Shown one piece after another: positions 2,970-7,574 of a stretch of 7,574 bases of DNA. The DNA comes from Promethearchaeota archaeon. GTDB taxonomy: Archaea; Asgardarchaeota; Odinarchaeia; Odinarchaeales; JBHLKK01. Every line of letters begins with the position of its first letter. Position 1 is the first letter of the stretch. Where the stretch lies: the NCBI GenBank assembly GCA_048939465.1, contig JBHLPL010000093.1, forward strand, positions 1 through 7,574, written 5' to 3'. The notes under the pieces were generated by a model, which saw only the letters and a program-made list of their open reading frames with translations, ran no database searches and had not been told where the DNA came from. Made by a program: the position numbers and the translations under genes.

Positions 2970-3239
2970 GTAAGACACTCGTAAGAGCAAGGTTGATCGA
3001 CGGCATGGGTGTAACATTCAGTCTGGGAGCGCAGGCCTTGTGGGTGTATCCTGCTTGACGGGGCTACTAGCTGTTTTTGGCACAGTATGGAGCGGATCAG
3101 CCCAAAGGCTGAAAGAGATCTTCCTGTGCAGCCCTGAATTCGGAGTACAGAAACCTCCCCTCTGAGAAGCCGAAGTTTACTCAGGTGTATAAGGCAGGGA
3201 GAAGGAGGAGGCTCCTTGCGAAAGCTGGGAGCAGCACAC
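2970..3239 (+). ncRNA. Structured non-coding RNA ending in an IS200/IS605 right-end-type hairpin; possible divergent omega-RNA or IS remnant
   Basis: GCTCCT-T-GC-GAAA-GC-T-GGGAGC (3211-3232) followed by AGCACAC aligns position for position with 1148-1175. Nested helices: GCACAG/CTGTGC (3080-3129), CAGCC-CAAA-GGCTG, CGGGGCT/AGCCCTG, CTGAG..CTCAG and CTCCC/GGGAG. G-U pairs favour the + strand. TTTAAAT box at 2939-2945. The 5' limit is approximate. Confidence 0.55.
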
Positions 3240-3319
3240 TAGTTATTATACGCTAAACAACCTAAATTAATTAAAGATAAGATATTATTGTTCCTAGCCA
3301 TCCAGTTTATTAAATCTCG

Positions 3320-4725: not shown

Positions 4726-5929
4726 CTAAGTTTTTTTCATCAAAGCTATGAAGAATCCTGGCGTATCATGCAGATCGGGATAAAATCGCTGTAGATGCTT
4801 CGCTTCAGGGAATTGCTCTTGCAGTTCACCAGACGACCCGTATAAATAGACTTGATCAATAACAGAAAAACCGAAATGCTCCGTTGCATATTTGATATTA
4901 GATTCATTCTCTTCAGCCGATAAAGTGCATGTACTGTAAGCAATGATGCCGTCTTTCTTTACGAGTTTCCCGGCTACGCCAAGAAACTGCCTCTGGTATG
5001 CTGCACACGCTAATATTTCATTTCTTGTCTTTGTCTCATACAATTTAGGACGATGGCCCAGAGCAGAGCATGGGGGATCGATTAGTACGCGATCTGCTCT
5101 TAAAGAATACTCTTCAGCCAATCCGAGGGCATTCCGCTGAAGAATCTTGACATTGGTTATACCCAATCTCTGAGTGTGATGGTTTAGTGTTTGGAGACGA
5201 GACGGAGAACGATCTACAGCCAATATTGTTCCCCTGTTATTCATTAGCTGAGCCATGTGTGTGGTTTTTCCACCTGGTGCAGCGCACATATCAATGATAA
5301 ATTCATTTGGTTTTGGGTCCAGAATTCGACTTGTTAGAATAGCAGGTAGAGATTGACCGTAGAAATATCCTAACTGATACAGTGGTGTTTCTCGCAAGCT
5401 TAAAACATGGTATTTGGATTTGATAACCTCTACAGCTAATCCTCGTCTCTTCTGAAGTATCTCTTTACTACTCATCTTTGCTATACCAGTAGCTATACGG
5501 TTACCATATTTGTCAACTATGAGAGTCTTATCTCCAGGATGGATTTTGCCTGTTTTAATTACTCCAGGCGCATAGAGACAGGCACCCAGCATCACGCTTT
5601 CTGCTGCGAAATTTATCCGCTACAATCCTCTTGTCAGCATCCGGTATATCGAAAGGGCCCTTGACAGGAAAGGAAATCATTTCGGTTATCTTCATATCGG
5701 ATTTAGCTTCTACGCCTTTCTCAGCCAGTAGGCTGATAAGCCGTTCTGGTGAAATTCTAATAGTGTTTGCCCTAATGGTGTAATTCTTTCCGGGCTTTCT
5801 TAATGCAGCAATAATGCGTTCTGCTCGATTCAGACCGTATGATTCGATAAACACTCCAATAACGTCTGAGGAGTAACCATATTTCTCTGATAAAACCATA
5901 ATATCCGAACCATGCATATGAACCACCAT
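4726..5929 (-). CDS. PUA-domain RsmB/NOL1/NOP2 RNA m5C methyltransferase (NSUN6-like), interrupted by one extra nucleotide at 5608-5611
   Basis: ORF 5555-5929 (EKYGY, TIRANT, KRIVADKF) and ORF 4726-5595 (GACLYAPGV, QSLPAILTSRILDP, IDMCAAPGGKTTH, VLIDPPCSALG, YSTCTL, RFYPDLHDTPGFFIA) join as DKF-AAESVMLGA if one base of TTTC is skipped. Confidence 0.88.
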
Positions 5930-6135
5930 TTGCTTTCAGATTCCTATAATTAGTTACATGTTCTTAAAATGTCTGAAGCATAAGTGAAGTAAAAATCTAA
6001 ACCTAATCCTTATGTCAAAATCATCAAACAGGCTTCTGAGTGATTCCAATATTTGAACATATGTTCTAGTATTGAAAAATTGAAAGTATGGCTTTCAATG
6101 ATGTTCTCAAAGAGACAGAGAATACATCAAATCAC

Positions 6136-6141
6136 AAAAAA
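6136..6141 (-). terminator. Oligo-T terminator of the structured RNA
   Basis: CTCTCTTTTTT on the minus strand at the end of the closing helix. Confidence 0.45.
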
Positions 6142-6488
6142 GAGAGGTTGTGTGTGGTCAGACGGATAGTCCTCCCGGATCCCAACAGATGACCTTTTTC
6201 AACAACCTGCTGACGTCTCTAAAGTAATAGAGGACGTCTCAGCAGTTGAGCAGCCTGATCAGGTGACAAGGCATCTCTAGGGGATCCGTTTTCTTTAACC
6301 ACGTTTCGTACCTTTCTCTTTACAACAAACACATTGCATCCCCCCTTTCCCGCCTTGTGGCGGTTTGGGTATTTGTTTCATCACGCCCCTCCTTGGCGCT
6401 CTGTCTAGGAAAGATGTCTTTCACAGAGCAGACAAATCCACCCGAACAAAGAGGTTTCAATTGCATCCCACTCCCGCATCAATCCTAC
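6136..6488 (-). ncRNA. Unclassified ~350-nt highly structured RNA
   Basis: ORF-free, GC-richer island in AT-rich intergenic DNA. Helices: CGGATCCC/GGGATCCG, GATGCCTT/AAGG(T)CATC, a long CTGCT-GACGTC-TCTA hairpin (6207-6245), GGGT..ATTTGT/ACAAATACCC, GCTCTGT/ACAGAGC, CCGCC-ACAA-GGCGG, GTGGT/ACCAC, AAAGAGA/TCTCTTT. The minus strand is chosen from promoter and terminator placement; G-U evidence is mixed. Confidence 0.65.
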
Positions 6489-6507
6489 GATTATATCTAA
6501 TAACGGC

Positions 6508-6517
6508 TATATATTTA
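6508..6517 (-). promoter_or_regulatory. TATA box for the structured RNA
   Basis: TAAATATATA on the minus strand, about 25 nt upstream of the GTAGG start at ~6488-6485. Confidence 0.5.
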
Positions 6518-6720
6518 CATATTTGTCTAATATAATAGTCATCAGTCTAATTAAATGATTGTTATGACAGGATTGGCTGTATTGCTTAAAACGAGTCCTT
6601 TGACTGTATTGAATCAATTGATGTTTGTGATTTACAAAATAATATTTATAATGAAAAGTGGGCTTCATATTAACTGATATATACTTGGATAGGGGCATTT
6701 CCTGAAGCGAGGGAGAAGGA

Positions 6721-6990
6721 ATGGCGGAGCTAGATAGGTTCGTGAAGAATTCCTATATCACTAAAAGACAGTTTACAATTTATCAGCTATTAATGAATCG
6801 AGATTTAACCATAAAAGATGTCGCCAAAAAGTTGGGAGTTACTGAAAACACAATTTATGTAACCCGTAGGAAATTTCACAATATCCTAGATAGGGCAACC
6901 CGAACACTTGAAGTCGCCTCAAAGCTGGGTGTAATAGATAGAGAAAGGATTAAAAGGCTTCTTATTGAGAACAAAGATTCTGCTCTGTAG
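6721..6990 (+). CDS. Small helix-turn-helix DNA-binding protein, Tfx/sigma-70 region 4-like
   Basis: SYITKRQ..IYQL...DLTIKDVAKKLGVTENTIY..R....NILDRATRTL resembles the Tfx N-terminal domain. Purine-rich RBS GGGAGAAGGA directly upstream. Confidence 0.7.
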   Translation: MAELDRFVKNSYITKRQFTIYQLLMNRDLTIKDVAKKLGVTENTIYVTRRKFHNILDRATRTLEVASKLGVIDRERIKRLLIENKDSAL

Positions 6991-7039
6991 ACTGATGTCG
7001 GTAGGGTGATCGCGGAAGCAGATGTATCAAAAGCTAAGG

Positions 7040-7050
7040 AAAAAAGAAAG
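7040..7050 (-). terminator. Oligo-T terminator after ahcY
   Basis: CTTTCTTTTTT on the minus strand, 5 nt after the TGA stop. Confidence 0.5.
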
Positions 7051-7055
7051 AGGAG

Positions 7056-7574
7056 TCACTCAGTGCCTGATTTCCAGTCGGAAAGATACTTTATTTGCTC
7101 TTCGGTTAACTTGTCAATCGATATTCCTAATGCCTCCAGTTTGAGTTTTGCAACTTGCTCATCAATCTCTGGAGGAACTTTGTACACATCTGGCTTGAGT
7201 TCACTGCCATACTTTACCAGATACTCTACGGAAAGCGATTGGTCACTGAAGGACATATCCATAACCTTTCCAGCCCATTTATCTTGGGACGCTGGGGTGG
7301 CCTTTTCCGCCTAGAACCATGAATCACGGCTAGCCTGCGGCGGCCAGATTTACTAAACGTCCCTCAGCAAGCAGATATAATCTTCGACCATCTTTTAGCA
7401 TGTACTCATCCACATTTGGTCTAATTCTTTGTTTTTTGACGGTCATGGCCTCCAAATCTGACAGGGCGAGCTCCACATTGAATTGACCCGTTGAAGGAGA
7501 CTCCAACGTGTGGCCTGTGTTGGCAAGTATCGCCCCATCCTTCATCAACTCCATATGCTCCTTACGAATGACAT
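7056..7574 (-). CDS. ahcY: S-adenosyl-L-homocysteine hydrolase, 3' part; spliced from exons 7574-7510, 7482-7335, 7304-7290 and 7267-7056
   Basis: Spliced product: [92 protein letters not shown]...[43 protein letters not shown]. This is the typical SAHH C-terminal half, with frame conserved across all junctions. Confidence 0.95.
7268..7289 (-). other. 22-nt BHB mRNA intron in ahcY (frameshifting if retained)
   Basis: Minus strand: ACC-CCAG-CG|T-CCCA-AGATAAA-TGGG-CTGG-AA|A-GGT, a strict BHB. Splicing gives AGC GAG GTT ATG (SEVM). Confidence 0.92.
7305..7334 (-). other. 30-nt BHB mRNA intron in ahcY (contains in-frame TAG and TGA)
   Basis: Minus strand: TGGCC-G-CCGC-AG|G-CTAG-CCGTG-ATT-CATGG-TT-CTAG-GCGG-AA|A-A-GGCCA. 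Splicing gives GCA GAA GGC CAC (AEGH). Confidence 0.92.
7483..7509 (-). other. 27-nt BHB mRNA intron in ahcY (in frame, no stop)
   Basis: Minus strand: GGCC-AC|A-CGTTGGAG-TCTC-CTTCAACG-GGTC-AA|T. Central helix GGCC/GGTC, two 3-nt bulges, 8-bp intron hairpin, weak exon helix. Splicing gives GGC CAC TTC AAT (GHFN). Confidence 0.88.

Follow-up and report, generated by a model that had tools for sequence, protein, structure and literature searches.

This locus raises the question of what is encoded by a GC-rich, strongly folded intergenic block at 6136-6488, which the first-pass annotation described as an unclassified two-domain structured RNA with its own promoter and terminator. The feature is real and unclassified. 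Membership in a family of mRNA leaders accounts for one half of it, and for its other, unique half we infer a function.

Genomic context and conservation of the block

The window, i.e. the whole stretch of DNA analysed here (7574 bp), is the complete contig C24 of a MAG (G000; 1.96 Mb, 91% complete). The block lies within the following gene order:

phosphoribosyltransferase gene, plus strand, first in order
4726-5929, minus strand, m5C RNA methyltransferase, two ORFs
gap of 790 nt between methyltransferase and HTH gene, containing the 6136-6488 block
6721-6990, plus strand, HTH gene of 89 aa with Pfam HTH hits, divergent from the unit
beyond the HTH gene, minus strand, 3′ end of ahcY

The GC content is 0.46-0.50 across 6100-6500, compared to 0.28-0.37 in the AT-rich flanks. 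The block is found beside the methyltransferase in both other species of the genus (G001 and G002), each of the three genomes having a single copy at this one site, and BLAST searches of 58 more distant relatives yielded none. In the sister family (L063), ahcY abuts the methyltransferase, and the element and the HTH module are missing at the syntenic site. Therefore approximately 1.1 kb, comprising the element and the HTH gene (within 5930-7055), represents an insertion in this genus.

The sequence of the block is constrained. Domain A, the part closest to the methyltransferase, is 89-90% identical to its congeners with two small indels only, and the 3′ (motif) half of domain B reaches 94%. 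The coding flanks show lower or similar values (78-84% for the methyltransferase, 84% for the HTH gene). The spacer between domain A and the methyltransferase has an identity of 56% over its length, or about 80% in alignable columns, and measures 206 nt here versus 151 and 143 nt in the congeners, a difference of 55-63 nt. Within domain A, 7.6% of the predicted paired columns are variable, compared to 25.9% of the unpaired columns. It is the identities above those of the spacer, together with the fewer changes in predicted stems, that mark the block as constrained.

Several other features of the window were noted. Of the two methyltransferase ORFs, one encodes the ferredoxin-like N-terminal part (124 aa) and the other the PUA-methyltransferase part (289 aa), and they overlap by 41 nt; in the sister family (L063:1492-2692) the two ORFs are 7 nt apart. 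The split is kept there, so it is probably no error. An ORF of 102 aa (7006-7314, plus strand) without Pfam match is antisense to the 3′ part of ahcY and poorly conserved in G002, and is hence probably spurious. The direct repeat ATTGCATCCC (6333-6342 and 6460-6469) flanks most of domain B, not domain A, is not conserved in the congeners, and is probably due to chance. Two more GC-rich folded intergenic blocks, at 901-1208 and 2970-3259, each end in a GCGAAAGC-capped hairpin and have no sequence in common with 6136-6488.

Orientation and predicted ends of the transcript

Read on the minus strand, the unit is composed of the following elements:

6490-6517, minus strand, predicted promoter region with TATA-like ATTAGATATAAT (6490-6501) and TAAATATATAG (6507-6517)
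6402-6476, minus strand, leader 5′ part with purine-rich 5′ end (GGGAGUGGGAUG) and the pyrimidine tract CUUUCCU just before the motif
6364-6401, minus strand, leader motif core of 38 nt: GA, hairpin, GAU-GA, AACAAAUACCC-AAA
6383-6399, minus strand, motif hairpin of 5 bp (GCGCC/GGCGU) with the Shine-Dalgarno-like loop AAGGAGG
6350-6363, minus strand, second small hairpin CCGCC-ACAA-GGCGG, invariant in the three orthologues
6322-6349, minus strand, linker from leader to hairpin, the most variable stretch of the unit
6139-6321, minus strand, domain A, an imperfect rod-like hairpin of 183 nt plus a small side hairpin
6136-6141, minus strand, oligo-U tract straight after domain A (U6 here, U8 in G002, U7 in G001)
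6295-6384, minus strand, short open frame of 28 aa (MKQIPKPP...) with ATG at 6381

Both TATA-like blocks are kept in G002 and at a paralogous locus on contig C33 of G001. Across the leader family described below, AT-richness as well as the best TATA-like 8-mers have their maximum 85-115 nt before the motif, with a smaller cluster near -70, and the blocks at 6490-6517 fall into the main peak. Since this peak is upstream of the motif, the motif lies inside a long 5′ UTR. The transcript of the window's unit would start between approximately 6487 and 6469. At the other end, the oligo-U tract likely acts as the transcription terminator: within the unit, the minus strand has no other U run of at least 5, and the plus strand contains a conserved internal T5 at 6195-6199. 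The promoter and terminator initially assigned to the unit are thus plausible as sequence predictions.

Four indicators point to the minus strand, which is also the strand implied by the first description of the unit. Firstly, 21 genes from genomes and more than 100 from metagenomes have 5′ regions homologous to the leader, all in the direction of the minus-strand unit. Secondly, the conserved U6-8 tract follows the hairpin on this strand. Thirdly, the consensus energy of domain A is -58.6 kcal/mol on the minus strand versus -50.1 on the plus strand. Fourthly, among the 132 copies in the matches listed, the motif hairpin is closed by G-C in 81% and by G-U in 19%, an exchange that works only on the minus strand.

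Domain B is a copy of a widespread mRNA leader

In the first-pass annotation, domain B was taken to be three hairpins joined at a multi-way junction. The fold of this region on the minus strand is no better than those of its shuffles (z = -0.16), and conservation backs two small hairpins only, namely 6383-6399 and 6350-6363. The region is explained by homology. A second locus on contig C33 of G001 aligns to window positions 6341-6517 with 74% identity and continues with a gene for a 188-aa secreted DUF3237-like protein. The 5′ part of the leader (6402-6476; 85% identity to G002) is alignable to this paralogue, and homology to the paralogous leaders stops at approximately 6343, within the linker. 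The paralogues also have a hairpin at the position of 6350-6363 with other letters: CCGUC/GAUGG on C33, with one C-G to U-A change and one G-U pair, and CCUC/GAGG on contig C89. Hence, of the proposed two-domain RNA, the hairpin domain A stands and domain B is no private domain but one copy of a widespread mRNA leader, so that the unit is better described as a leader fused to a hairpin. In G001, the contig sequence (C5 position 1, L004; C81) breaks inside the leader at the equivalent of window position 6461, probably because promoter and leader recur in that genome (C33 and C89).

The family shares the core GA / GCGCC-RAGGAGG-GGCGY / RAU-GA-N-A-N-AARUACCC-AA, in which the 3′ module AARUACCCAA is invariant but variably spaced. 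The 38-nt core is also matched in other Asgard families (BLAST of relatives). A strict 23-nt pattern occurs in 17 of 400 Asgard genomes, compared to three hits for the reversed control pattern. A covariance model (R1) found 1 strong copy in G000, 1 in G002, 3 in G001, 4 in G040 and 8 in G031; the window motif scores 68 bits. A degenerate 33-nt pattern was found on at least 120 metagenome contigs from soils and sediments with a contig GC of 0.32-0.59. In public contigs, the sole peak of depth over the block is at 6357-6398, i.e. around the motif. The carriers (L006, L011, L013, L017-L036, L071-L190) fall into at least three subfamilies that differ in the 60-90 nt before the motif. A scan of viral contigs for the motif gave no match, and one soil contig with the motif has a DNA match to none of the 400 Asgard genomes. 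Rfam 15 has no match to the leader in the window, in the congeners or in four representative leaders of other subfamilies, and no description was found in the searchable literature, motif letters included. The leader family is thus widespread and apparently undescribed.

Elsewhere, the leader precedes genes. In all genomic copies other than the orthologues of the window's unit, an ORF with its own Shine-Dalgarno sequence begins 18-74 nt past the core; in the metagenome copies the distance from motif to start is mostly 13-45 nt among the matches listed. A signal-peptide-like hydrophobic start is found in 95 of the 111 metagenomic ORFs of at least 80 aa, likewise among the matches listed. The encoded proteins are mutually unrelated and comprise S15 X-Pro dipeptidyl peptidase, penicillin amidase, M28 peptidase, S33-type hydrolases, beta-helix/NosD, SdrD-like and DUF3237 proteins.

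Other interpretations of the motif were considered. Leaderless mRNAs with a TATA box in the A-rich part of the motif were rejected, as a Shine-Dalgarno sequence is situated between motif and start and the TATA-like peak is mainly 85-115 nt upstream. In one metagenomic subfamily, a 5′ purine tract GAAGGG pairs with CCCUUC just before the motif, and the window has counterpart tracts in CUUUCCU and its purine-rich 5′ end. Pairing of the hairpin loop with the upstream pyrimidine tract as an H-type pseudoknot is sterically unlikely because no connecting loop remains, and these pairings may be alternatives to each other. The segment AACCTCT had also been reported near both ends of the block and suggested to compete for a common partner. 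Both copies are there, but the two congeners have AACCTGT in place of the upstream one, and the suggested alternative fold is therefore not conserved.

The AUG within the motif opens the 28-aa frame listed above. The unit could accordingly be read as an mRNA for this peptide (or for a nested 14-aa peptide, MQCVCC...) with domain A as its 3′ UTR. The Shine-Dalgarno-like GGAGG is 6 nt upstream of the AUG, and the frame is open with the same stop in all three species. However, the differences between the three species in the C-terminal half are almost all amino-acid-changing, without a pattern of purifying selection, and the cysteines are not conserved. Among the matches listed, 29 of 132 copies have a stop two codons after the same AUG, and in weaker copies indels of 1-3 nt after the AUG shift the frame, with stops at any distance. 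The open frame is probably no gene, and we consider a small-protein mRNA highly improbable.

Domain A is a rod-like hairpin confined to one genus

The fold first proposed for domain A is well supported. The outer helix AAAGAGA/UCUCUUU is followed by AGGU/ACCU, GUGGU/ACCAC, an 8-bp CGGAUCCC stem and a long apical hairpin. On the minus strand, the minimum free energy is -66.6 kcal/mol (z = -4.69), a value that none of 200 shuffles equalled. The GACGTC-containing apical hairpin likewise folds here, but one of its arms reads GATATC in the congeners without compensation, and the apical stem decays in these species. A search for homologs and covariation recovered the two congener orthologues and no compensatory changes in domain A, which is attributed to there being only three close orthologues. 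Among the variable pairs, 3 are kept and 5 broken on the minus strand, 5 kept and 2 broken on the plus strand, such that neither strand is favoured. Contigs from four public DNA runs added few further variants of domain A, none of them bearing on pairing.

No paralogue of domain A exists at any locus examined: BLAST against all loci and the whole genome returned chance matches of up to 15 nt only. A 19-nt match in G051 falls within a 435-aa gene and was dismissed as chance. Scans of metagenomes and of the genome collection with the most conserved 20-mer returned nothing or the known congener only, and no target complementarity above chance was found in the genome. Domain A is thus confined to this genus, in which it is conserved at least as well as the neighbouring genes. 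Two structural classes were compared with domain A and rejected. In an H/ACA guide (judged by eye), the ACA would be 14-16 nt from the upper stem, but here the distance is about 22 nt, and the upper part measures about 110 nt. A BHB intron or permuted RNA would have a 4-bp helix between 3-nt bulges, but the basal helices of domain A are parted by a 7x5 loop and a 1x1 mismatch.

The symmetry of domain A allows a reading at the level of DNA, with domain A as a palindrome, a scar left by a miniature inverted-repeat element or a protein-binding cruciform, and the motif hairpin as a palindromic operator for the HTH regulator. Domain A folds nearly as well on the plus strand (z = -3.90), its substitutions do not discriminate between strands, it has inverted-repeat ends, and the region is inserted when compared to the sister family. 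Against this, domain A is a single copy at the same site in three genomes and is present at no other locus examined. The motif is situated 60-115 nt downstream of the TATA-like peak, i.e. within the transcript, accepts G-U but not the mirror change, and is kept in lineages such as G040 in which no homologue of the HTH protein was found. We regard a DNA-level element as very improbable.

A further possibility follows from the shared strand and order of the unit and the m5C RNA methyltransferase genes (5929 down to 4726): the unit could be their cis-acting leader or attenuator, with regulated read-through of hairpin and U tract. Outside this genus's unit the leader family always acts in cis ahead of a gene, which is in favour of this reading. 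However, a poorly conserved, indel-rich and AT-rich spacer of 206 nt separates the U tract from the start codon, and the motif, usually 13-45 nt ahead of a start, is here about 435 nt away. Moreover, the methyltransferase of the sister family is found directly behind ahcY, where the element is absent. Attenuation of the methyltransferase genes is very unlikely in our assessment.

A duplicated module of regulator and leader

The divergent gene at 6721-6990 had been described as a Tfx-like regulator. Its 89-aa product is instead the N-terminal stump of an HTH-TPR regulator that measures 534-580 aa in the congeners, with intact, TPR-containing orthologues of 534 aa (G002) and 538 aa (G001); the loci compared were L198:1436-3040 and L199:1766-3508. 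As ahcY ends only about 65 nt past the stump, approximately 1.3-1.6 kb encoding the TPR part are missing here, due to either a deletion or an assembly artefact. On contig C33 of G001, a 580-aa HTH-TPR paralogue (72% identical) is encoded divergently from the paralogous promoter and leader, which precede the secreted DUF3237 protein. The duplicated unit thus consists of the regulator, the shared intergenic region and the leader. Downstream of the duplicated leader, one copy has the secreted protein and the other has domain A. From this arrangement, the HTH protein is a candidate regulator of the unit.

The same arrangement invites the view that the unit is a gene remnant, i.e. a leader-driven secreted-protein gene that lost its coding part and left an orphan leader with a large terminator or insulator hairpin, whose sole role would be to end transcription ahead of the methyltransferase gene, the RNA being functionless. 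All other strong leader copies precede a real ORF, homology to the paralogues ends exactly where their ribosome-binding site starts, the hairpin continues into the U tract, and the adjacent regulator is also shortened in this genome. On the other side, leader and hairpin are conserved in three species at least as well as neighbouring coding genes and far above the adjacent spacer, and a protein remnant was detected neither in domain A nor after it. Archaeal termination needs the U tract alone, so a 183-nt hairpin is unnecessary for it. The U-tract dependence of archaeal termination has been described (PMC8716108). We judge a functionless remnant to be unlikely, although it deserves more weight than the readings discussed above.

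A putative small RNA built from an mRNA leader

The reading that we tentatively prefer is a functional small RNA transcribed from a regulator-linked unit on the minus strand, possibly serving as a decoy for the leader-binding factor. The non-coding unit would span about 335 nt, roughly from 6475 down to 6136, and its transcription would be initiated at a promoter that also serves the divergently oriented HTH(-TPR) regulator gene. The first ~130 nt of the transcript would constitute a complete copy of the widespread archaeal leader. While the leader elsewhere leads within 13-45 nt to a ribosome-binding site and a start codon, it would here be followed by the variable linker and the 183-nt rod hairpin, whose last helix leads into the U6-8 tract, the expected point of termination. 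The result would be a small, stable RNA presenting the factor-binding hairpin of the leader without a coding sequence. Such an RNA could be co-regulated with the leader-bearing mRNAs or could compete with them for their binder, for example an L7Ae-type protein or the small ribosomal subunit. In favour of this reading are the strand indicators, the constraint on the block, the lack of a coding signal, the paralogous module of regulator and leader, and the absence of a match to known RNAs. Points against the proposed small RNA are that domain A has no compensatory changes and no strand preference among its variable pairs, that its apical stem decays in the congeners, that complementarity within the genome does not exceed chance, that the kink-turn reading of the leader lacks a supported non-canonical helix, and that the regulator is cut to 89 aa in this genome.

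A more far-reaching version holds that the 38-nt motif is the core of a new and widespread class of archaeal cis-regulatory leaders that coordinates the secretome (peptidases, amidases, surface proteins) as a protein or ribosome operator in Asgard and other uncultured archaea, and that the RNA in the window is a dedicated non-coding decoy, with the operator mounted on a stable hairpin scaffold, titrating the factor under an HTH-TPR sensor-regulator. In this full form the proposal is quite unlikely.

Asgard archaea are the closest prokaryotic relatives of eukaryotes, and to our knowledge hardly anything is known of their post-transcriptional control. Near-letter-perfect invariance usually marks the binding site of a conserved factor. 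The leader core is conserved at nearly every position on at least 120 contigs from soils and sediments, before unrelated and mostly exported proteins; once its binding factor is found, co-regulation of the archaeal secretome could be tested directly. The unit in the window is the only strong leader copy seen without a gene behind it and hence suggests itself as a candidate regulatory RNA that arose from an mRNA leader. If domain A were only a terminator hairpin, the locus would be an ordinary gene remnant and the leader family alone would be of interest. In either case, the leader family is the more valuable result.

Comparison with known RNA classes and elements

With Rfam 15, the window has no match at gathering thresholds and noise only at E-values up to 10, such that the unclassified status persists at relaxed thresholds. 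Archaeal RNase P RNA exists as one essential copy per genome. The RNase P RNA of this genome (RF00373) is located at C76:4502-4866 (178.6 bits), answering the earlier query for a canonical copy elsewhere, and its SRP RNA (RF01857) at C86:1877-2216 (140.1 bits); neither model matches the window. The unit resembles archaeal RNase P and SRP RNAs in size class (~300-350 nt), strong helices and organization as a stand-alone gene with predicted promoter and oligo-U end. It differs in that the window lacks a model match and the genuine copies are on C76 and C86. In line with the lack of a match by eye, the unit is not RNase P RNA, SRP RNA, rRNA, an intron or a known riboswitch. The features expected of a stand-alone archaeal ncRNA gene are present, namely a predicted promoter and oligo-U tract, conservation above the flanks, and no coding signal.

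Box C/D sRNAs have a C box RUGAUGA, a D box CUGA, a terminal stem, a length of about 50-70 nt, and C′/D′ boxes with guides. This class was rejected: GUGAUGA occurs in the copy of the window only, other copies reading AAUGAUA, AAUGAAA and similar, and the unit of ~335 nt has no terminal stem with a D box. Miniature inverted-repeat elements have multiple copies per genome, terminal inverted repeats and target-site duplications, and were rejected in view of the one copy at the same site in each of three genomes. The block resembles these elements and IS200/605 omega-RNA-like elements as a GC-rich, strongly folded intergenic block with inverted-repeat ends. Unlike the IS200/605 omega-RNA-like elements it is single copy and lacks a GCGAAAGC-capped end hairpin; there is also no TnpB gene near the block and no HEARO match at it.

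A closer comparison is offered by the l7ae leaders of archaea, in which kink-turn operators in the 5′ UTR are bound by L7Ae (Daume et al. 2017, PMC5539422; Huang, Ashraf and Lilley 2019, PMC6298567). Next to the Shine-Dalgarno sequence, these leaders have a GAU bulge together with tandem G:A pairs (PMC6298567; PMC5539422). Like them, the leader motif is a short 5′-leader stem-loop beside or containing a Shine-Dalgarno sequence, with a GAU or AAU bulge followed by GA and, on the opposite strand, a GA directly before the canonical helix. The canonical helix (GCGCC/GGCGY, 5 bp) ends in G-C or G-U beside the bulge, and a 3-nt bulge with GA on both strands is present (RAU-GA on the 3′ side, GA on the 5′ side). 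Among the matches listed, all 132 copies have A at -1 and 83% have G at -2; these two positions stood outside the pattern used in the leader search. In contrast to kink-turn operators, the motif has no supported Watson-Crick continuation of the non-canonical helix beyond the G.A pairs (3b:3n, 4b:4n): flank pairing was no better than in permuted controls for 21 copies, and neither pairing nor mutual information exceeded background in 131 copies among the matches listed. The motif also adds the invariant 3′ module AARUACCCAA, and it precedes secreted hydrolases and many other genes, not l7ae. Since the GA signature comes without a supported non-canonical helix and the 3′ module is unexplained, the analogy to an L7Ae-type operator is a lead on how the motif may work, and membership in this class is not claimed.

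Two further comparisons concern the arrangement of the unit. As in translational operators or leader hairpins that sequester the Shine-Dalgarno sequence, a conserved hairpin is built around a ribosome-binding-like sequence and is common to many unrelated genes. As in small RNAs derived from 5′ UTRs or orphan leaders, one copy of the leader exists without a coding sequence and ends at a predicted terminator. What distinguishes the copy in the window from orphan-leader small RNAs is the extra, unique and conserved hairpin of 183 nt that it carries.
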